From NCBI RefSeq assembly GCF_001447785.1, contig NW_015177013.1, positions 777,064 through 837,337 on the forward strand: a stretch of 60,274 nt of DNA, in the 5' to 3' direction. The notes beneath the pieces were generated by a model that saw only the letters and a list, made by a program, of their open reading frames with translations, ran no database searches and was not told where the DNA came from. Both the position numbers and the translations under genes were made by a program. Below, piece after piece: positions 2,880 to 54,295 of the stretch. Each line of letters opens with the position of its first letter. Within the stretch, counting starts at the first letter, position 1. The stretch comes from Gekko japonicus (taxonomy: Eukaryota).

Positions 2880-5235
2880 GAGAGTTGATCAGAAGAAAGC
2901 AGTCTCAGGGCATAAAGATACATAGCTCTTTCTCATCAGCCTACATCCTGCCTAAAAGGCAGGCTACCCAAGGGGCCAAGGATTCGGATCACCAAAAATC
3001 CTCTTGGCCTACTAAATGTGGCACAAAAAAAGCTCCATTATTCTTTGTGCTTTGTTTTGAGGTAGGAACAATTGGTTGACGGAGGTGTCGATGATAACTC
3101 CCAGATATTCCAGTTGTTGAGAGGGAGATAGGGAGATCTTTTGTGGGCTGGCTATGAATCCATTATCTTGAAGGCACTGGATGGTCAACTTTGTGACTAG
3201 TTGGGTCTTGTTTCTGGTACTGGAGACCAAGCCCTATGAGGAAAGGCTGAGGGACTTGGGAGTGTTTAATCTGGAGAAGAAGAGGAGGTTTTGGGGGGGA
3301 TGTGATTGCTCTCTTTAAGTAATTGAAGGGCTGTCACTTAGAGGAGGGCAGGGAGCTGTTCCTGTTGGAAGCAGAGGATAAGACTCACAATAATGGGTTT
3401 AAATTAAATGTGGGAAAGTAGTGGCTGGATATTAGGAAAAACGTTTTTTACACTACGAGTTGTGTAACAGTGGAATCAGCTGCCTAGGGAGGTGGTGAGT
3501 AGTCTTTAACCAGTGGCTAGACAAACACTTGTCAGGGATGCTCTAGGAGGATCCTGCATTGAGCTGGGGGTTGGACTAGATGGCCCCTTTCAACTCTGTG
3601 ATTCTATGAAAATCAAGGCCAGGTTTCTGCCCAGATTCCTCTGGAAGATCAAAGATCAATGAGTGGACATTATACTAGTGACGCTATTTTGGCCATGTCG
3701 GTTCTCACAGATTTCATTAGAACCCCCCTGGATTACCAGTGTCCTCAGACATGCTACAACAGGGTCCCATTTGGCATCCCGACCCCACCTGGATGCACTT
3801 GACCACCTGGAGGATGAAAATAGGTGCTTCCTATGATTGGGATATGATCCTGTTATGACGGAGACTCTACTGGCATCCCAAAGACAATCCACCAACAAAA
3901 TACGCAATACGTCTTGGAAAGCCTTCATATGATGGTGCAGAAGAAAGGGGATTAACCCATTAAAACTATCGCTCACCTCAATTTTAGCATTCCTGCAAGG
4001 AGTCAAGAGAAAACTTAAGGCACACACACTGAAATGGCAAACAGCTGCCTTAGCTGCTGTTCTGCACCATACCAAAGGCATGCACATTTCCTGTCATCCC
4101 CACATCATCTGCTTTATTCGAGGCATGACTCTGAGGGACCACCACAAGCTCACAGATTTCTCATGTGGAAATTTCAAATCGTCCTCTCTGCTCTCACAAA
4201 CCATCATTTGAACCACTTCGGGATATCTGCATCTAATGGCTCAGAATGAAGACTCTGATCCTTGTTGCCATCACCTTGGCCAGGAGGGTGTTTGAAATAG
4301 ACTCACTTTCAGTCAAGGGAGACATTTTCATCTTCCATAAGGTCAAAATGGTCCTTAGACCTGATCCCATGTTTATTCCCAAGGTTAATTCTGTGTTCCA
4401 CAGGTCCCAGGAACTGCAACTACCATTCTGTCTGAAGCTAAGCATCCAAAGGAAAAGGCTTGGAACACTCTCGATGTTAGAAGAGCCCTAAAGTATTACT
4501 TACAGTGAACCAACTTCTTTAGAAAAACAGATGCTATGTTTATCTCCATATTTCCTCCAAACAGGGGCCATAGGATGTCCAGGGTGGCGATCAGCAACAC
4601 CATCAAGGCTTGCATCATTGAAGCCTACAAAGGCCATAATAGTCAAATTTCTTCAGGTATCACAGCTCATTCTATCCAGAGTGCTGCCACCAACATGGCC
4701 TTTGTTAAGCATGCTGCTGTCAAAGAAGTCTGTAAAGCAGCTACCTAGTCTTTGCTATCCACTTTCATCAAACTTAAAAAAAAATCAACACTAGAAGAGT
4801 GCTGCAGAACATTATAAGTGATGGTGACTCTAATCCACCCAATAATTGAAGACACTGTTCTGGGAGGTCACTATCAAGATGTCCTGCCATAGAGGAAGAA
4901 CAGACCATTGAATACTTACCATGAAGGGTCCTTCTCCTCTTGAAGTCATCATCAGGAAGACAATAAAGCAAGTTTTTCTTCTTGTCTCATCCTTTTGTTC
5001 ACTCACTTTGTATATGTATCTGCTGTTCCTCTGTTTTTTCTCCTACTGCAGAGGTAGTAGCTTAGTCTAAACTGCTGATGGAGTTGCCAAACTGGAGAGG
5101 GTGACTCCCATGAGGCTGAAGACAGGAAGCTGAAAATTAGTTCCTCCCTCCCTTGATTGGACAGTGGGAATCAAGATGTCCTCCGTTCCTCAGAAGAGAA
5201 GGACCCTTCACAGTAAGTATCCAGTGGTCTGTTTT
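2880..5235 (+). mobile_element. DIRS retrotransposon 'B': 3' part (MT end, YR, ICR, right end) plus an inverted RT/RH fragment, nested in DIRS C
   Basis: YR motifs KTLILVAITLARRV, LRPDPMFIPKVNS, ITAHSIQS, EVCKAAT. ICR ~4870-4940 is complementary to the end 5195-5235. Minus-strand 3012-3230 encodes a DIRS RT C-terminus (GFIASPQKISLSPSQQLEYLGVIID). Confidence 0.8.
3220..3609 (+). mobile_element. CR1 LINE 3' fragment
   Basis: PYEERLRDLGVFNLEK; ends ...ttcaactctgtgattctatga (CR1 tail). Confidence 0.88.
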
Positions 5236-7522: not shown

Positions 7523-9440
7523 GCAGTGATCTTCCTGGCTCCACATTGGCCAAGGAAACCTTGATTTTCAGACCTGCTTGCATTGTCAGTCCAGCCTCCC
7601 TGGATGCTTCCAGTTCTTCCAGTCAGTCTGTCCCAGGGACCAATACTCACCAGGGCCTTACAGCTAGCATGCTCTGTATACGGGCAAAGGCTCTGGCCTC
7701 AGTTCTGCCAACAGTTGAGGGATGTCCACTATCACACCACCTACCTGTCAAGCGTTTCCTCAGAGAAGCAGCATTTTCCAGCCTGCCAGTGGTTCACTGT
7801 TTTCCTTCTTGGAAACTTCATTTGCTTCTTCAAGTACTTACCTAACCTCCATTTGAGCCACTGCAAGAGATATCACTCTTACAGCCATCACCTCTGCCAG
7901 ATGTGTCTGAGAATCGGGAGCTCTTATTTATAGCTAAAAGCCTCTACATTTTGTAGAAGGATGTGGGGGTTCTGTCTGGACCCTTTGCTCATACCAACAG
8001 TGAATTCTGTGTTCCATGGGTCTCAGGAGGTGTACCTCCCATTCTTGTATCCCAATCCATTGCACCTTAAGGAGAAGAACTGGGATACCTTGGATGTGTG
8101 AAGAGCCTTACATATGAACATCCAGTGTACAGCTTCTATCAGGAGATTAGATGTTCTGTTTGTAGCTTACCATCCTGTAACCAAGGGCAGAAAGGTGTCT
8201 AAAGTGTCTCTCAGTAGGTAGCTGAAAAGAGTGTTTTATTTTGGCTTATTCTCAAAGGCTTAAAAATCTGGAAGGAATCACGGCCCACAACCAGGAGGCC
8301 AGCCACCACAGCTGCCTTTCAGTCCAGTGGTTTTAGAGATCTGTAGAGTAGCCATCTGGGCAGCTATGTCTACCTTCATAAGCCATTACAAAATGGACTC
8401 ATATGCAGCAGCCGATGTAATCTTTGGGTGGCAAGTGCTTCAACAGGTGGTTTGAGAGGAATTGAAACACAGTGCTGCCCTCCCGTCTCAGGGGAAGTTT
8501 TGTGACATCCCAAACATCAGGATGTCGTCCTCTCCTCAAATGAGAAAGGAACTTTGGACTTACGTGAAGGTTCCTTCTATTTGAGATAGAGGACGATATC
8601 CTGGACCCACCCTGATATAGGGGAATCTGATTGCTTTCTGGATAATAGTTCTCTTGTCTCAATTATCTTAAACTCTTTTTTCACTCTTTTTTCACTGCTA
8701 CTGTCAACTGTTGAATGTTGTTTCTTCTTTGAAATGGGGTTGGCCCTCTGGCCTTGTCCTGTAGTTGTTTAATCTTCAAGTTATGTCCTGTTGGCAGCAT
8801 CAAACAATGGGTCCACTTTGTGGTTTTCTATGGAAAGCTCTGGAAGCCTCTGAACTGAAGAAGGAGGTACTCTTCTCCTTGGGGGGGTGGGGGAGGAAAT
8901 GACCTAATGTCCTGCCTCCAGGAATTGTGGGAGAAGGAGTACCCAGATGTCAGGATTTCCTTCTCTACTTGAAATAGAAGGAACTTTCACAGTAAGTCCA
9001 AAGTTCCTTTTGCAGTTATTTGACTATGATAAATGGATTTCTCTGGGATCCCTTCAACTCTGTTCTGTATGATTTGTATGAATGGCCTCCTGAAGGATAC
9101 TTGAAAATACAGTTTTAATGGCAACAAACTTTGTCATCAGGTAACTTGAAGAGCCGTATGTTTGTGTAACCAGTTTCTTCTTGTTTTGGAATAACAAAAA
9201 AGAAGTAGGAGGCTCTTTTACCTTATCAGATGGGCAGGGGCAGATTAGATCAGTGAAGTGCCAGTTACTAGTGGTACCATGTAGTCAAGTTAAACCTGTA
9301 CATTTTGGACCAGGCATGAAAATTAGTAGGTCCTTACTAGATCAAAGAGGAAAGATCACATTTACTGTCTTCTGTACACTTCTATATCTGTTCACTTCTG
9401 TGCTGATGGGTCTAGTTTACCACATTTTGAGTGTATGATG

Positions 9441-12341: not shown

Positions 12342-14220
12342 CCTCTTGATTCTTCCTGTCACCCCCGGGCCATCCACAGTAACTCCTGGATGGGGCACCA
12401 GACTTCGTCCCTTTCTCCCCGCTTGGCAACTTGTTACAACAGACTCTTGGGTCCTCACCATAATTCGCATGGGATATGCGATAGAATTTCTTCACTCGCC
12501 TCATATACCTCACTTCCGTCGTACCCCTCTGAACCGTTTTTTGAGGGCTGATGTTTCCAACCTACTTGCCAAAGGCGCTGTAGAACCCGTACCCCATTCA
12601 CAACATCGATTGGGGTTTTACTCCCGATATTTCCTGGTCCCCAAATGGACAGGAGGAAAGCGTCCCAGTATGGATCTCAGGGGCCTAAATCGCTACATCC
12701 GTCGCAGAAATTTCCGCATGATTACTCTGCAGTCCATTCTTCCACTCCTACAAGAAGGTGACTGGTTAGCGTCTTTGGATCTCCAAGACACCTACTTCCA
12801 CCTCACTATCCATCCATCGTTCCGTCAATACCTCCGCTTCACCGTCTGGTCCCACCACTATCAGTACCGGGTCATCCCCGTCGAGTTGTTGACCGCCCCG
12901 AGGATTTTTACCAAATATATGGCAGTGGTAGCGTCCGCTTTGAGACATTATGCTATTGTCGTCTTCCCATACATAGATGGCTTCTAGTGACTCCCTCCTG
13001 CGAAGATCTTCGGAGAAGTATCACCCAGACACTCCGGTACTCGCTGCCCTAGGTCTTTCAGTGAACCTCTCAAAATCTCACCTCAAACCAACCCAGTCTC
13101 TCGTTTATAGGAGCCGACATAGATAGCATCAAACAACACGCTTGCTTACCTCCGAACAGGGCTGCCATGCTTCAATCCCTGGTCAACAAGTGTCTTTCCT
13201 CCCCAAAGCAAACAGCGGTGACTCTTCAGCACCTTTTGGGACACATGGTGGCCACAATGTCTGTAGTTCCCTATGCGCGGCTGCGCATGTGTCCTCTCCA
13301 ATTATGGTTTCTCTGCCATTTTCGATCTCACATGGATCCTCCGACAGTAGCTTTCGTCATCCCTCCTGCTGTCCTGACATCTCTGCGTTGGTGGCTCAAT
13401 GACACCAATCTCTTCCTGGGAATGCCGTTTCGTCTTCCACCTCCCACCGAACTCCTGACCACGGATGTGTCAATGTGGGGTTGGGGAGCCCACTACAACA
13501 ACCTAAAGCCATGAGGCGTATGGTCCGATTCCGAGAAGACCTTACACATCAACTACCTTGAACTCACAGCAGTCTGTCTAGCACTGCAGTCCTTTCTACC
13601 CAACCTATGGGAACGCCACGTCCAGGTAGCGTCGGACAATATCGCCACAATCTATTAAATCAACAAGCAGGGGGGCACGGTCTCCATTAAACTTTGCAAA
13701 CGTGCGCGCTCTCTCTGGGCTTGGTGTATCCTCCACAGTATACACCTGACAGCAGTACATGTCCCTGGGACTTCCAAAATCCAGGCCGATGTCCTCAGAG
13801 TGGTCTCTGACCTTGACCTACCTCGCAAGCGTGTTCAACCTCTTCGGTCACCCCAAGGTGGACGCATTTGCGACCAGTTGCAATGCAAAGTGTCCAATTT
13901 TCTTCAGCCGGGGAGCTCCGACTCAGGGCTCCAAAGGGGATGCTTTCCTACACAAATGGACAGGGAAACTATTCTTCATGTTTCCCCTGTTTCCTCTGAT
14001 CTCCTGGACTCTTCAAAACATTGCCATGGACGGCACCAGCTGTATCCTAGTGATCCCATGGTGGCCTCGGCAACCCTGGTTTGCAACACTTCTTCGACTT
14101 TCTTGTGGCATCTTTTTACGCTTCCCACTAGTCCTGGATATCCTAACACAATGCGAAGGGAAGGTGCTTCACCACAACCCATCAATCTTCCGCTTGACAG
14201 CCTGGAAGATCACTCACTGA
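12342..14220 (+). pseudogene. DIRS A pol: reverse transcriptase, RNase H and Dam-like DNA N6-adenine methyltransferase, disrupted
   Basis: GFYSRYFLVPK, MDLRGLN, LDLQDTYFH, PYIDG* (decayed YLDD); TTDVSMWGWGAH, HINYLEL; EWSL, VDAFAT, GDAF, ILVIPWWPRQPWF, LTAW. Confidence 0.92.
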
Positions 14221-15208
14221 TATTCTCACCACGGCTGCAACATGTGATTCTTAATTCGGGGAAACCTTCCACACGGCGTTCTTAACACTCTAAGTGGACT
14301 CGTTTTTCCAGTTGCGCCCACAATCGCAATCTGGACCCTGCGTCTGCACCCCTTTCCATGGTGCTATCTTGTCTTCTCTCCCTCAGTGATTCCGGATTGT
14401 CATATTCATTGTTAAGAGTTCATCTCTTGGCTATTTCGGCCTTTCATAATCCTGTTGACGGCATTACCATTTTTCCTCATCGTTGGTCTAAATTGTTTTT
14501 AAGAGACATGTTGCGGCTTCACCCACCAGTTAAGCCTTTCATTCCTGCCTGGAACCTTTCACTGGTCTTATCAATGCTGATGGGAAAAAACCGTTCAAGC
14601 CACTACACCTCCTCTCCTGGAAAACGGCCTTCCTAGTGGCCTTCACTTTGGGGTGATGGGCCAGTGACATTTGTGCATTCCGTTCCGATCCACCCTATAC
14701 CATCTTTCATAAATAAAAAGTGGTCCTCAGACCGGACCCAACTTTCCTACCCAAGATCGTTTCCACTTTCCACCTTTCCCAACCATCATCATTACCGACC
14801 TTCTTCGCAAATCCAACTGATGCTGGTCACACTCTGGTTGTCCGCCGAGCCTTAGACAGGGCACGCTCGTTTCGTCAGGATGTCCAGCTGTTCATAGCCT
14901 ACAGAGCCCCACGTCAGGGCTGTAAAATTTCTTCCCAACATTTGGCTAAGTGGGTTGTTGCGGCTATCAAACTTTGTTACGAACTTGCCCGTCAACCCTT
15001 ACCTGATATGGTCCGAGCGCATTCTACTAGATCAGTGGCCGCCTCGGCCGCCTTTCTGCAAGGTGTTCCTTTGGAAGATATTTGTTCTGCGACAACGTGG
15101 TCGACTCCATCCACCTTCATGACGCATTATGCCCTTGATGTTTGTGCTCGAAGGGACGCGTTTTTTGCCTGCTCGGTTCTGAACCATCTGTCATGGGACT
15201 CCGAGTAA
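14221..15208 (+). pseudogene. DIRS A tyrosine recombinase, disrupted
   Basis: LSYSLLRVHLLAISAFH, LRPDPTFLPK, RAHSTRSVAAS (HxxR), WSTPSTFMTHY (catalytic Tyr). Confidence 0.92.
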
Positions 15209-15330
15209 CTCTCTGCTCGTACGCTGGTACATGTTTTTGCCTTAGCGGTCCCATACTTGAGTGTTGACCATTGCTGTCGTCTTTCTGCCAGCGCCCACCT
15301 CCGGTAGTGTTTTAGCTGGTTAATCACCCA

Positions 15331-15420
15331 AGTGTGGGACTGCACAGGGACCACGATGAAGATAAACAGGTTGCTTACCTGTAACTGATTATCTTCAAGT
15401 GGTCACCTGTGCAGTCACAC
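15331..15420. repeat. DIRS A internal complementary region (ICR)
   Basis: agtgtgggactgcacagggaccacgatgaagat = reverse complement of the left terminus; aaacaggttgcttacctgtaactgat... = reverse complement of the right terminus. Confidence 0.95.
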
Positions 15421-15708
15421 ACACCCGCCCAACCTTCCCCGCTGCTGGCTTTCCTTCTCTCTCTATTTGCATGGTCTTGCTAGCGGTGGCTGGAAGAAAC
15501 TGAGCGGGGGTGGGGTTTCTACTCAGCTCCAGGCACACGCAGTAGCAGCCTGCTCCCCAGAGCGGAGGAGAAAAGCCCGCCAAAAATTGTCTGAGGCTAG
15601 CTCTTCCAGATCTCCGAGATCGGGTTCGTGGGCAGGCCAAAACCCAAGTGTGTGACTGTACAGGTGACCACTCGAAGATCATCAGTTACAGGTAAGCAAC
15701 CTGTTTTT

Positions 15709-16037
15709 CTTTTTTGAGGTGTGGTTACCAGAATTGTACACAGTACTCCAAATGAGGTCGCACCATCGATTTATACAGGGGCATTATGATCCTGGCTGAT
15801 TTGTTTTCAGTTCCCTTCCTAATAGTCCCCAGCATAGTGTTGGCCTTTTTTTATTGCAGTCAACATTTTCATTGAGTTACCTACTATGACTCCAAGAGAG
15901 TCTCTGCCTGGCTCCAATGTGAATCACTTTGCACTTGGCCACATTGCACCCCATTTGCCACGTTGATGCCCACTCGCCCATCCTTGACAGATCCCTTTGG
16001 AGTGCCTCACAATCCTCCCTGGTTGTCACCACCCTGA
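15709..16037 (-). mobile_element. CR1 LINE fragment (continuation of 9717-10112)
   Basis: Reverse strand encodes PLYKSMVRPHLEYCVQFW-type RT C-terminus. Confidence 0.85.
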
Positions 16038-16730: not shown

Positions 16731-17920
16731 GAAGATCTTCGTCGTGGTCTCTGTGCAGTCCCACACATGGGCTGTGTGCCTGTGCACAACCTCGACCGGA
16801 GAAACTTCTAGAGCTTTGCCTCAGAAAGCTTTTGGCGGGCTCTCTTCCCGCCCTGGGAAGCAGGCACGTACTGCGCATACCTGGAGCGGAGGAGAGAGCT
16901 GCCTCCCACTCAGTTCTTCTTCGACCACCTATGTATTCACACCTCATTTCTGTCGCTCAGTACTTGCCTCAGCTAAGTATACATTTCTCTTTCTCTTTTT
17001 CATTCCCCATGCTGTGCTGACTTCAGAGATGCTGAAGGGTAGATTTCTTGCTGCTTTCAGTGTCTACAGTTTATGTAAAGGGAAGAGCACTTGCCCTTGC
17101 TCTAAGCTGTGGGAAGGGCTAGCTCCCATTGATGCCATGCTGAGGTATGGAGTACTTTGGAAAAGAGCAAGACTTCTTGCTGTTTACTCAGTGTTCTGAG
17201 GCTCACTGCAACAGAACTTGGGCAAAAGAGCATGGGTTTCCTACTTGGAATTGCGCTGGGCCTCAATCATCTACTGAGGCATCACATGCCATTTGAATTG
17301 CCAAAGCAAGCTTTCTGGATGGGGAGGAGGCTGTGTAATTTGTGTCAGTTACAATACTTAAGCTCAAACATGTTTCTGTCTGTGATTCCTATGAAAAAGC
17401 TTCAATTTAACTGTGTTGATAAATTATTATGAGTGTTTTAAGAGTGTGTAGACTTTAATAAGATGGTCAGTACACTCCTAAGAACAGTTTCCTGGGGTTA
17501 AGCAGGACTGAATGGACTTGAATAGGATTCTGAGTAGACCTGTTTAAGATGACTCTGCAGTGATTCAGATCTGCAGCGATTTTGGACAAGTCTCCATTGC
17601 TGAGGTTTGCAAAGAGGTGAATTGGTCCATGCTATCTACATTCATGAGGCACTACTTGATAGACAATTTCTGTGAGTGAGGCAGCTATGGGAAAAGCAGC
17701 TACAAGTGTTATTCCTCTAGGCAGCCCATGGATCTCTAGCTTCCATGGCAATGAGGGAAGGAGTGCCTCCCTCCAGTCACTTGTCGGTTTAGGCAGGAAG
17801 AGCCAGGCTGAACCAGGAAAAGCCCTTCTGGTGCTATGGAAGGTGCTAGAAGGAAAGGTTTTAAGTTCAGTCCTCTGCAGCAGGCATGTGCAGTCTCATG
17901 TGTGCCTGTAGTGACATCAG
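16731..17920 (+). mobile_element. Internally deleted DIRS remnant 'D'
   Basis: Left ITR 16731-16925 resembles that of DIRS A (atcttcgtcgtggtctctgtgcagtcccacac); decayed gag zinc finger ~17090-17230; YR C-terminus SIAEVCKEVNWSMLSTFMRHY at ~17590-17660. Confidence 0.7.
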
Positions 17921-37693: not shown

Positions 37694-39189
37694 AAAAACA
37701 AGAAATACAGATCCTTCTGCTTCCTTGGTGCATGAGACCTATACTTGCTGGGAGATGCATTTTAAATCCAGTGGACAAGGGGCCTGTTATATACTTTCCC
37801 CTGTTGCCGCTGATTTCCAGAGTCCTCTACCAAATGAGATAGGAACACACATTTGCCATCCTGATAGCTCTCTTTTGGCTCAGATAATTGTGGTTCCCAG
37901 TGCTACTGGTTGTGTCCCACAGTAGCTACATCCCACTCCCACAGGAATAGAGGTTCTTTCTGTGGAGCTTGTTTCCACACCCAAACATTGGCAGCCTGCA
38001 TTTAACAGCATAGCTCATTCAGTACCAACAGACAATTTCTGAACCTGTCAAAGAAGTTCTGCTTAATGCCAGAAAACCTCCTAACTGGCATTCCTGTTTG
38101 GCCAAATGGAAATGTTTCTGTACACGGGCCACAGAACAGCATTTAGATTCAGTCCACTGCCCAACAGAGAAGGTTTTTGAATCCCTCATATACCTACTCA
38201 GAGGAGGCTGTTCATCTACCTCCATTCGAATCCATCTAGCTGCTATAGCGTGTTTTGATGTTCAATTTCATGGGAAGTCCCTATTCTCTCAAAGGGAATC
38301 CAGATTTTTCCTTGAGGGGCTATGGAATCCCCCCCCCCCCGTTCAGCCTCTGATTCCTCAGTGGAGCCTCTCACTCATGCTCTCACAACTTATGGGTAAG
38401 CCTTTCAAACAAATGGCCAGTTGCCACATTCCTTTGGTCACTGTGAAAACCTTTTTTTCTGGTTGAGGTAATGTCAGCCAAATGTGTCAGCAAACTACAG
38501 GTGTTGAGACATGACCCTCCCTTCCATCTTCTGCACTTCTTAACAGTTCCTGCCCAAGGTAACTTAGGTTCTGCGTGAACCAAGACATCACTTTTGGTTT
38601 GATTATACCCTCAATCACAAGATGAGAGAGAATGAACTCTCTATTCCTTAGACATTCAAAGGGCTGTCCTCTTCTACCTCGGTAGAACAAAATCCTTTTG
38701 AAAAGATGACAACTTATTCATCGTTTCAGTAGGCTCCAACTTGGGCAAAAAACTGTCAACCCAATCCATCTCTAGATGGATAGTCACGTTCATCAGACTG
38801 TTACAAACTAGTGAGTTGACTCTCTGCTGCAACTTCATGCCCATTCTACTCGGGCACAGTCTGCATCAGCTGCTTTTTGCCATGGTCTGTCTGTTGATTC
38901 CATCTGCAAGGCTGCAGTGTGGTGGTCCTCTTGCACTTTAGCAAGACACTACCTGATTGAGATGCAGCAGTGGGAAGAGCAGTCCTACAGTCTCTGTACA
39001 ACTGAAAGCTCACACCCACCTTTCTAAGACTGGTAAATCAACTCGCTAATCTCCCATGTGGGACCGCACAGGTATCATGATGATGAAAACAAGGTTGCAC
39101 TTACCTGTAACTGTTGTTCATCAAGTGGCCACCTGCGCTGTCACACAATCCTCCCTTCTGCCCTTCTTTGAGCACTTAACATAATCTGA

Positions 39190-40765
39190 AGACTTCCGGT
39201 CTATGGATTGGCGATGGCAGTCGCTCTCCCCAGAGCTTGGGGAGGCGATTAGCACACCATCGGCATGGAGGGGTGCCACCTCAAGTGGCACTCCCAAGGA
39301 GTCTTTGTGAAAGGCTCCAGGCCAGAGAGCTTTGAGGGTTAGCCTCTTCGACGGCTTGCTGCCAGAGAATTGAGGCTTCCCTCCGCTCTGAAGGTTCTAC
39401 CGATGAGTGGCCTTAGGGCACAAGCTAACCCGAGCGGAACAAGCGGGGGAGACCGAGCGGAACAACGATTGATGTGAGCGAGGTCAGGAATGTGACCAAC
39501 AATGAACGTGAGTTCTAAGTAAACGAACTTTGATAAACGGCACCCCCCTCCCCGTGGGAAAAGTGAAGTGCAAAGAGGGACACCTCTGAAGCACAAGGAC
39601 AGATAAACACAGCGAAGGGGGAGTGGGAGGAAATAGACAGCGTGTGTATTTTGAAAGACTTACTTGAGTGCGAATAGCGAATTGACGAGTGCTTCGAGCC
39701 CGGGAGAAGCAGTTTGAAAGTGTAAACAAAGTTGAAAAATGGCGGCATCACGAGGAAAGTTTAAAGCGAAGTCTCAAAGTCCGAGGCTGGAAGAGGGAGC
39801 TGACGTCATGAAGCTGTTAGCAGATATGCTCAAGCCAGTGATGGATCAGCTCGATGGTATTAACCAGCAACTGACCTTGTTAAATCAAAACTTCACTTCA
39901 CAACAGCGACAGCTGGCAGAAGCGGGGAAAAAAGTGGAGCTGGTGGCTGAGAAAGTTACAGAGATAGACACCTCAAGCAAGAAGATGAAGAAAAGAATGG
40001 GTGAAGTGGAAACAAAATAAAGTCTTCAAGAAAATCGTTTGTTGCAGCTGCAAATGGAAAAGGCTAATATGATTCTCAGGTTCCAGGGGGTTCCGGAGAC
40101 AGAAAAAGAAGATTTGAAGAAGACTCTGGGTGAGATTATCGCTCCAGTGACAGGCCAGAAGAGAAAGAGCTACAAGGAGTTAATTACTTTTCTTCAAACA
40201 AATGGTATACAGTACAGGTGGGCGATTCCTGAAGGTGTCATCGTTAAAATCAACGATAGAAGGGAGAAGATAGACTCCATCTTCAAAGTCAAAGAATTCT
40301 TGAGACGTCAGCTGGGATTGGGGGAAGACTCTAAAGAGGAAGAAACTAAATCAAGTGACTCAGTTGCCTCGGGAATGGATGAGAACTCCGCTGCAGAAGC
40401 GGGTGCGGGAGCAATGAAAACTGTATATGATTTTAGAGACAGAAAGCCGAAGTAAGGGCAGAAGGACTCTAATAAATGGCCCTTTGAAACAAAGAAGATG
40501 CTCAGAAAGTTCTCTCATAATAACTAATTTACTAATACAGAACAATGTGGAAAACAAGAACTCTACAAGTATATTGTTTTACTAACTCTTTTAATACTAA
40601 TATTAAGTTTAACATAAAGGGGGTCTCTCACTCTTGGGTTTTTAAGTTAGTGTGGGTATCTTTCCTTCATCCATAGTTGTAGTTCTCCTTCCTATATTTT
40701 TCTTTGTAGTTTGTAGTCATATTGAAAAAATAAAAATACCCCTCTGGGGGTTAAAAACAAAACAA
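39190..40765 (+). mobile_element. ORF1-only L1-derived element (half-L1/HAL1-like)
   Basis: 12-bp TSD aacataatctga (39178-39189 / 40766-40777); gacttccgg-type 5' end and CpG-rich 5' UTR; ORF1-like frame 39739-40455; AATAAA at 40729 and A-rich tail; no ORF2. Confidence 0.85.
39739..40455 (+). pseudogene. L1 ORF1p-like frame (238 codons) with one in-frame stop at 40018-40020 and most of the RRM missing
   Basis: ORFs 39739-40020 and 40039-40455 share a frame; coiled coil, then LRFQGVPE (RRM start), then directly RKSYKELITFLQTNGIQYRWAIPEG (CTD). Confidence 0.78.
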
Positions 40766-41157
40766 AACATAATCTGAGAAACTTGCCTCACTCCAATGAC
40801 GACAGAGAGGAATTGAGGGAAGGGCGTTCTTCCCCCTTTATATCATGTGGGAAACAGCATGGGGGAGGGGGATGGAGCACCTCTAGGCATTTTGAGCTTC
40901 AAAAAAATCCTTTCTGCAACAGGCTGTGTGTGTGCAGTACCCATGTGCAGCACAGATGACCACTCAAAGAACACTAGGTACAGGTAAGTGCAACCTGTTA
41001 TTTTGTATATGGGAAACTGTAAATAATTGAAATAACCAATTGACAGCATAATCTGAAAGGCTCAGTCAAGGTATTTTCCAATAGCTGTCCTAGCAGGTTT
41101 AGTTGGTGGTATACGTTATATATGTCCTCTTGTAAAAGCGGATCTCCCCTAAGCTAA

Positions 41158-51940: not shown

Positions 51941-52108
<168 letters not shown>

Positions 52109-52129
52109 TAACTTTATTCTCTAGCTTCT

Positions 52130-54295
52130 CAGTCTTGGCCCAAAAATCAGATGGATTTTATCTCAGAGACATTATGGATAATATCTGCAAAACAATTAAT
52201 ATTATTCAGTATGCTGGAAGTCACGGTTTGCCCTCAACATTCATCTTAGCTATTGACATAGAGAAAGCATTTGATAGCCTTGGAAAAAAGTACTTGTCAC
52301 TGTTAAAGCATATGAATTTTGGCCCTAGATTTTACACTGCTGTTTCTGCTTTATATTACTCGCCTTCAACATGTTTCAGGATTAATGGTTGCAACTCAGA
52401 AGATTTCTTTTTGGGTAGGGGCACAAGACAGGGTTTTCCCCTATCGCCACTGCTTTTTGCCCGATCCCAAAGTCACGTTCCCTGCAGTCTTGGATCTCTT
52501 GACACAATTTGGGAGGGTTTCTGGTTTGAAAGTTAATGCAAAGAAAACAACCCTTTATTCAATGTCTCTGTCAGAATTGAATAAAACTTATTTTAATGTT
52601 AATTTTAATTTTGTTTGGGCCAACAACAACTGGAAGTATCTCGGAGTGATTGAGTGATTATTCCCTCAAAGCTGACTGATTTTATTAAATACAATCATTT
52701 GACTCTAGTGATGTCTATTCAGTCTACAATACAGAATTGGAAAACAATGCCATTATCTTGGCCTGAAAGAGTCTCTCTTATAAAATCCATCTTATTTCCA
52801 AAGTTGTTATATATTTTAAGGACCTTACATGTCAATATACCTAAGTTATTGTTATCAAAATGGCAAGCTTTATTACTTCAATTTATGTGGAATCATAAGG
52901 CTTCTAGGATTACTTTGAAGGCATTAAGACAACCAATAGAATCAGGAGGAATTTGTCAATTCCAGATATAAAAACTTACTATGAGGCCATTATTCTCACA
53001 AATATACTTAAATACAATGAGTTGGGATGTACACTGTCTGGAAATATATTGAGGAAATCTGTGGATACCATATAGTCAGCGACCGAAGCTAACTAATGTG
53101 AATCCATATCTAGGGACCATTTTGCAGGTGTGGGATAATTTCAGAAAAAGATACTTACCAAGGTTGTCCTCTTGCTCTACTTTTACCAGCCAGTTGTGGT
53201 TCCCTCCTACGCTGGGTAGTATTTCTTGTATGCTCTGGAAAAAAGCAAATAACATTAGATTTATTGATATTGTTAAAAATTGAATAATATGCAGTAAATT
53301 GCAACTAGAATCTAAAATCCAGGAGCCAATCCCCTGGATAGAATATTTCCAATTACAGCACTTATGTAACACACCAGAGATTAAGAAAGACTTGCTAAAA
53401 TCTGTCACCCCCTTTGAAAAACTGCTTACTACTCTGTAGACTTCTTTAAAAAGTTTGATTCTGAAAATTTATAATATTTTAATTTGCTATGGCAGATCCA
53501 CTTCATTATCTTTTCATAAAGCCTGGATGCTTGATTGTGAGAATTCTTTAACAGATCAAACTTGGGAATGTATTTGGTTCTCTGATTCCCTCCATGCCAC
53601 CTCTTTAAACTTCGTATACCAGACATATAAATTTATCACCTGGATGGTACTCTTCACCAACTAAAATAGCATGTATAAACTGGAAATACAGTTCTCATTG
53701 CTGGCGAGGATGTGGAGGAGAAGGAACATACATTCATTGTCGGTGGCTTTGCCCAATGGTTCTTAAGTTTTGGAAAGATATTGTGCAACAAATAATTTAC
53801 AATTCCTTTTACAATACACTCAGTACTGTTGAATGTTTGGCCTGACTTAGAAATTCCCGACATCCAAAAATTTTAATTGCAATGCTATTATTGGTAGCTT
53901 AAAAAGTGATTGCTTCTCATTGGAAGGCCTCCCAGCTACCTGGGATAAAGGACTGGTATATGTCTCTGTGGGACTATATAATTTTTGATAAAATAGCAGA
54001 TGTTGAGGTCTAATGAGTGTCCTTTGTTTGAGTCAAACTTCCTGAATAAGTTGTACCCGGTATTGGAAAAACTTTTAAAGAATGTAAATTCCCCGTATTC
54101 TTTTAGCAATCATTGTTATTTCAAATTTATTTTGTAATGTAACAATTAAGTTTTGTATAAGGTAGTATTGAAATCTGCCTTGTAGTACAGGTATTTCAAC
54201 TCTGTTGTTAATGTTTTCTTGATGTTCTGTTACTGGTTGATGTTTTGTCACTGATTGATGTTTTTTTGAATATTTAAAATAGTTTTTTTAAAAAG
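52130..54295 (+). mobile_element. L1 ORF2 3' fragment (RT to C-terminal Cys domain), degenerate
   Basis: DIEKAFDSL, RGTRQGFPLSPLLFA, SGLKVN, KYLG, CWRGCG..GTYIHC; A-rich end. Confidence 0.88.

Follow-up and report, generated by a model that had tools for sequence, protein, structure and literature searches.

A probable dead copy of an abundant ORF1-only, HAL1-like LINE-1 derivative in Gekko japonicus

The stretch of Gekko japonicus DNA analyzed here, called the window (60,274 nt; assembly GCF_001447785.1, contig NW_015177013.1, positions 777,064 to 837,337 of the forward strand), contains a 1.58-kb unit between perfect target-site duplications (TSDs), whose only reading frame resembles the ORF1 protein (ORF1p) of LINE-1 (L1) elements with most of the RRM missing. 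The RRM is required for RNA binding and retrotransposition of L1 ORF1p, and a sequence-only reading had proposed that the unit represents a family encoding an RRM-less protein; the question is whether the gap belongs to a family or to this copy. The reading favored here, with a probability of about 0.9, is that an abundant ORF1-only (HAL1-like) L1 derivative of about 1.8 kb, whose copying was likely the work of ORF2p from a different L1, inserted here at full length, that this insertion is now dead, and that the missing RRM is a deletion of this copy only.

Anatomy of the unit and its surroundings

The features of the unit and of its insertion site are given below; the domain limits of the ORF1 pseudogene (coiled coil, RRM parts, CTD) were read off the intact sister copy L007.

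39092..40996, no strand: older repeat into which the unit inserted, with arms of 49 nt (39092-39140 and 40948-40996) in inverted orientation; presumably it is one end of a DIRS-like element that has decayed
39178..39189, + strand: left TSD, AACATAATCTGA, preceded by TT; perfect 12-bp copy at 40766-40777
39190..39738, + strand: CpG-rich 5' UTR of 549 nt; GACTTCCGGT starts at 39191 and resembles the 5' terminus of lizard clade-1 L1
39739..40455, + strand: ORF1 pseudogene; it retains the N-terminus, the coiled coil, the first RRM strand and helix, the CTD, and an acidic tail
40018..40020, + strand: private nonsense codon TAA at codon 94, in the coiled coil and upstream of the deletion (24-copy alignment)
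40155..40156, + strand: breakpoint of the 210-nt, in-frame deletion private to this copy, which takes away codons 140-209 and with them RRM strands 2-4, the second helix, and the first part of the linker helix
40456..40765, + strand: 3' UTR of 310 nt with a T-rich tract and an A-rich tail to 40765 (sequence reading)
40729..40751, + strand: AATAAA at 40729-40734, then the hairpin ACCCC-TCTG-GGGGT at 40738-40751 (5-bp stem, 4-nt loop), before the tail; family-wide
40766..40777, + strand: right TSD, AACATAATCTGA, 100% match to the left one

The anatomy given by the sequence-only reading (12-bp TSD, CpG-rich 5' UTR, ORF1 frame with one stop, 3' UTR of about 310 nt, AATAAA, hairpin, A-rich tail, and no ORF2) was confirmed by the sequence. 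The 5' UTR has a GC content of 0.53 and an observed/expected CpG ratio of 0.73, versus 0.25 in the remaining window; the ORF1 frame has the single internal TAA and no frameshift, and tblastn with an L1 ORF2 from the same genome as query detected no ORF2 inside the unit.

Regarding the surroundings, the insertion lies within the inverted-repeat end of a decayed element (window 37750-41000) homologous to another one at 13659-15709. The frames of both contain an H-S-T-R...W...Y motif, which we take to be that of a DIRS-type tyrosine recombinase; Pfam gave no match on these flanking frames. Further fragments occur near 4345-4769, 7979-8449, and 17590-17664. An 11/12 match to the TSD at 41045-41056, 279 nt downstream of the right TSD, is probably due to chance, and a decayed L1-like reverse-transcriptase fragment at 52060-52953 (RVT_1, E 1e-7) is unlinked to the unit.

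The missing segment of the RRM

The loss of most of the RRM from the frame of this copy, already noticed in the sequence-only reading, was borne out: relative to the sister copies, 210 nt (70 codons) are absent between 40155 and 40156, and with them residues 140-209, or three of the four RRM strands plus the second helix. The true breakpoint follows GACAGGC (40155), and is not at ACAG|G near 40153 as formerly placed. The deletion is in frame and codon-aligned, with the coiled coil and the CTD retained; its ends have no microhomology to the majority allele, and at most 2 nt with a minority allele.

A DNA search of the same genome, with 40 places scored out of 6,422 candidates, returned 36 copies whose alignment broke at the junction and four, the window included, that aligned through it. 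Most of the 26 junction-breaking copies examined had about 210 extra nt; in the rest, the sequence was interrupted by deletions, gaps, or unrelated insertions. Besides the window, the copies that aligned through were L002, L003, and L004; these were candidates for sharing the junction given their continuous alignment, and were rejected, each having a separate deletion of its own (200, 186, and 208 nt, respectively); since this search favors copies of the length of the window unit, the share of deletions among these four is not a deletion rate.

Over the whole 2.49-Gb assembly, the deleted junction was found once, in the window itself, by each of three patterns: an exact 20-mer, a gapped pattern tolerating shifted breakpoints, and a 24-mer with 2 mismatches; exact patterns overlook mutated copies and a handful of old descendants could escape, though the 24-mer search tolerated 2 mismatches. 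The intact junction had 92 exact matches, and the control 0. Because the deletion junction occurs once versus these 92 matches, the proposed RRM-less family is not supported; no set of copies sharing the junction and bearing independent TSDs emerged, the window copy being the only one. As for codon 94, it was compared in the 24 copies that remained of 30 loci once 6 truncated or interrupted ones were set aside: it was CAA in 22, AAA in one, and TAA in one, the window copy. Production of an RRM-less protein by this copy, also suggested earlier, is not supported because this private stop ends the frame within the coiled coil. The window copy differs by 2.7% from the majority of the aligned copies (1.8% outside CpG), the same as its sisters. 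The missing RRM is damage seen in no other copy, a case of single-copy decay.

Three other explanations of the gap were weighed. It is extremely improbable that the RRM-less form is a mobile subfamily whose ORF1p can still form trimers and acts as a parasite or a dominant-negative partner: in its favor, the deletion respects the frame and the codon boundaries and spares the coiled coil and the CTD, yet a deletion falls in frame about once in three by chance anyway, and the three junction patterns, the private stop upstream of the deletion, and a constraint on the deleted segment equal to that on the remaining ORF1 (pN/pS 0.20, next section) all argue against it; so do the RNA reads over 40018, none of which carries the letter of the window copy (0/57; 55 from X21 and 2 from X22). 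Splicing of the element RNA prior to insertion, which the sequence-only reading had raised together with a check for GT-AG bounds, is equally improbable. CAG does adjoin the 3' breakpoint and ACAG|GC the 5' one; however, joining ACAG|GC to CAG would yield a junction 3 bases shorter than that observed, and the removed segment is not an intron because it begins with TT and ends with GT, matching neither GT-AG nor GC-AG. In addition, no RNA joint was seen on the full-length copy L007 (5,927 + 3,129 reads; about 3% and about 12% of two runs).

It is unlikely, finally, that the 210-nt gap is a repeat assembly error hiding a full-length allele. The assembly is fragmented (191,500 contigs), and in the contigs of two DNA runs labeled as the same species neither the junction nor the letters of the window copy at 40022 and 40095 were found; however, contig sets drop rare variants, so that absence proves nothing, and the sequenced animals may lack the insertion, while the window has no N and its copy has substitutions of its own on both sides of the junction. 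Preferred to all these is a private deletion in one dead copy of a family with a complete RRM, the very outcome that the sequence-only reading had set against its own proposal; but the parent is a full-length HAL1-like element, and not a full-length L1.

The ORF1-only family and its protein

Unbroken ORFs occurred in two of the 24 copies, L007 and L024 (308 and 310 aa, respectively). The L007 protein could be aligned to human ORF1p over residues 58-240 (E 2e-4). Its AlphaFold model, built on a 33-sequence alignment (pLDDT 77) and used in place of a first model from a shallow alignment (pLDDT 50), which was set aside, predicts a helix at 18-109 and RRM strands at 112-116, 149-155, 168-173, and 196-202, followed by the CTD; Foldseek ranked the human ORF1p trimer first for this model (E 1.4e-10, identity about 20%), and the nearest Atlas clusters were L1 RRM proteins (score 0.94). 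Pfam Transposase_22 had no match at E 0.01, and Pfam gave for the window frames and the intact copies only weak matches under the curated cut-offs, mostly to coiled-coil families. As modeled, the ORF1p of the family is a complete coiled coil-RRM-CTD protein of the L1 type; the sequence and structure comparisons upheld one half of the earlier proposal, the L1-type ORF1p, and not the RRM-less architecture, the sister copies having a complete RRM. In six copies (L005, L011-L013, L029, and L030), the loss of 1 nt in one A-run within the RRM, near codon 161, shifts the frame; either the homopolymer slipped repeatedly, or these copies stem from one defective source.

As for the size of the family, a protein search of the genome scored 150 of 29,109 candidates (lineage A). 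Forty of these 150 matches, most of them picked because their frames are open and together covering the range of 75-93% identity, were inspected, and all aligned to one unit of about 1.8 kb, a few of them partially. In a set of 5.8 billion proteins, the only relative was P0002, 48% identical (305 aa, encoded on a 1.5-kb public contig); used as query, it retrieved a second lineage, B, with 129 scored matches, and the 20 lineage-B loci inspected were likewise units of about 1.8 kb. Because the best of these 129 scored matches in the genome is only 65-67% identical to P0002, this protein probably belongs to a different species; the lineage would then predate Gekko japonicus. No L1 ORF2 N-terminus followed ORF1 in any of these 60 loci; matches to reverse transcriptase only, all outside the unit, occurred in 8 of the 60. 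One locus has, just downstream of a family copy and outside its TSD, a 1,008-aa open frame that is reverse-transcriptase-like and of another LINE clade (L068:2607-5630, in the ORF1 orientation).

Lineages A and B share about 48% amino acid identity, and a third lineage is represented by two copies in L085, nested within an L1 locus, so that at least three deep lineages coexist. ORF1-only elements inserted in autonomous L1 loci were seen at L074, L077, L085, and L090. In an ORF1 tree of 34 rows, every ORF1-only element fell on one side of a long branch (100/100) from 12 L1 ORF1s; the tree is midpoint-rooted, and the side of a branch does not amount to monophyly of these elements.

Regarding selection, parsimony counts, uncorrected for multiple hits, on 43 ORFs chosen for open frames (leaving out 10 loci that had no start-to-stop frame by the filter used, L064, L112, and 7 copies whose protein is the same as that of L093) gave a pN/pS of 0.20 on internal branches and 0.28 on terminal ones. 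By part, the internal values were 0.17 for the coiled coil, 0.21 for the RRM, 0.20 for the segment deleted in the window copy (codons 140-209), and 0.12 for the CTD. ORF1 of the family has thus evolved under purifying selection, also in the segment that the window copy lacks. Among the 24 copies, which had been selected for similarity in DNA, the changes private to single copies had instead a pN/pS of 0.67 (0.73 outside CpG), near neutral; together, the constrained internal branches and the near-neutral private changes argue that source elements retain the RRM, and that inserted copies decay.

In lineage B, 28 of the 129 scored matches share one identical score, and the eight inspected (L093-L100) encode the same 308-aa protein; seven of them have 99.2-99.9% DNA identity to L093 with different flanks (e.g., L094:603-2456). 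A 22-mer from this near-identical subfamily had 71 exact matches genome-wide. This suggests very recent or ongoing movement, with the proviso that short-read assembly can homogenize young repeats.

Mobilization, kinship, and meaning

The family moves as a unit, with many copies having common ends, independent TSDs, and poly(A). An exact TSD of 9-20 nt (median 16), mostly starting in A-rich sequence, was detected at 35 of 90 loci; at the other 55 the detection failed, 36 being without a recognizable end motif and 19 without an exact repeat of at least 9 nt, and some TSDs are visible there by eye. The length of the TSDs, the A-richness of the targets, and the poly(A) suggest mobilization by L1 ORF2p acting in trans. 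The non-autonomous, TSD-flanked, ORF1-only family foreseen by the sequence-only reading is real, and it is HAL1-like and of the lizard L1 type. The ORF1 identity to the sampled autonomous L1s of this genome is 27-39%, in alignments over the RRM and CTD; among 20 L1 loci sampled from 29 Pfam matches, neither an autonomous parent nor any similarity in UTRs or 3' ends was found.

RNA reads from related copies span the element on both strands, mostly at 90-95% identity, and are compatible with own-promoter transcription and read-through alike. In the proposed course of events, source copies would be transcribed by Pol II from the CpG-rich 5' UTR and would make a complete ORF1p that coats its own RNA in cis; L1 ORF2p in trans would then nick an A-rich target and copy the RNA from the poly(A) tail by target-primed reverse transcription. 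The window copy would have lost its 210 nt at a blunt break, after or during insertion, either because the reverse transcriptase jumped or in repair by end joining; before or after that loss, a C-to-T change would have created the nonsense codon; it would have left no descendants that the junction searches could find.

The 3' end has a further trait: at 71 of 90 loci, a motif search recognized a stretch resembling a stem-loop, placed after the AATAAA-like signal and before the tail, and it folds in nearly all 71. In lineage A, a C-G pair is swapped for T-A between subfamilies (8 of 30 rows); lineage B has a different stem, and the third lineage, read by eye, a longer one, which in one of the two L085 copies precedes the poly(A). 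The covariation is statistically weak, with one compensatory pair and 12 of 500 shuffles scoring as high, the sequences being related and nine lineage-B rows partly out of register. No hairpin was seen by eye at that place in the sampled autonomous L1s, whose 3' UTRs are short. The hairpin may have a role in 3'-end formation or in ORF2p capture.

Half-L1 elements (HAL1) of mammals were reportedly described by Smit in 1999 and by Bao and Jurka in 2010. In the accessible text of the sources cited here, HAL1s are ORF1-only elements that arose several times in mammals (PMC5753468, PMC13756887); the guinea-pig HAL1 retained its ORF1 coding capacity for about 29-44 Myr, and from this long-kept capacity a need for its own ORF1p has been argued (PMC3627910). 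Like mammalian HAL1s, as far as those texts describe them, the gecko family is L1-derived, encodes only ORF1p and no ORF2, has TSDs and poly(A), and has long kept its coding capacity (pN/pS 0.20); set against them, it has at least three deep coexisting lineages, one of them with near-identical copies, and a conserved hairpin between AATAAA and the tail. Unlike them, it comes from a lizard-type L1, with about 20% identity to human ORF1p versus 27-39% to the L1s of its own genome. Most likely, the gecko family works like HAL1 and arose separately from the mammalian ones.

As for lizard L1s, the part of PMC5381506 consulted gives the clade-1 5' consensus GACTTCCGGTGN8ATGGCG and an ORF1p with coiled coil, RRM, and CTD; the window unit is alike in starting with GACTTCCGGT...ATGGC and in the make-up of the family ORF1p, and differs in being without ORF2 and in its 5' UTR of 549 nt versus 792-1,465 nt. 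The terms "HAL1" and "non-autonomous" do not occur in PMC5381506. No reptile HAL1 was found in the literature searched; Repbase, Dfam, and the primary HAL1 paper lay outside that scope, so absence from print is not implied. Analogues of HAL1 in other LINE clades are also on record, in the available portion of PMC5786205: like the gecko family, the LINEs HeT-A (Jockey clade) and Ag-Sponge (CR1 clade) are non-autonomous but retain ORF1, and they are believed to act together with an autonomous element; unlike theirs, the gecko protein is of the L1 type by fold.

A broader view can be offered only tentatively, as one that we consider possible but less likely than not: the family may be a half-L1 lineage of reptiles that is old and yet still mobile, its parental L1 having died out before it. 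At least three deep lineages would have preserved the complete ORF1p, and the stem-loop that separates AATAAA from poly(A) would serve in cis to attract the ORF2p of distantly related L1s. If this were true, the youngest subfamily would be a natural active HAL1, suited to asking what an element with no other gene needs an ORF1p of its own for.

In conclusion, a parasite of L1 with an RRM-less ORF1p was the surprising prospect, and the evidence shows single-copy decay instead. The near-identical subfamily with its intact ORF1p would allow the need for a cis-encoded ORF1p and for the 3' hairpin in trans mobilization to be tested. The ORF1-only lifestyle, known for L1 from mammals in the sources available here, also exists as a large, long-lived, and apparently active lineage of the lizard type.
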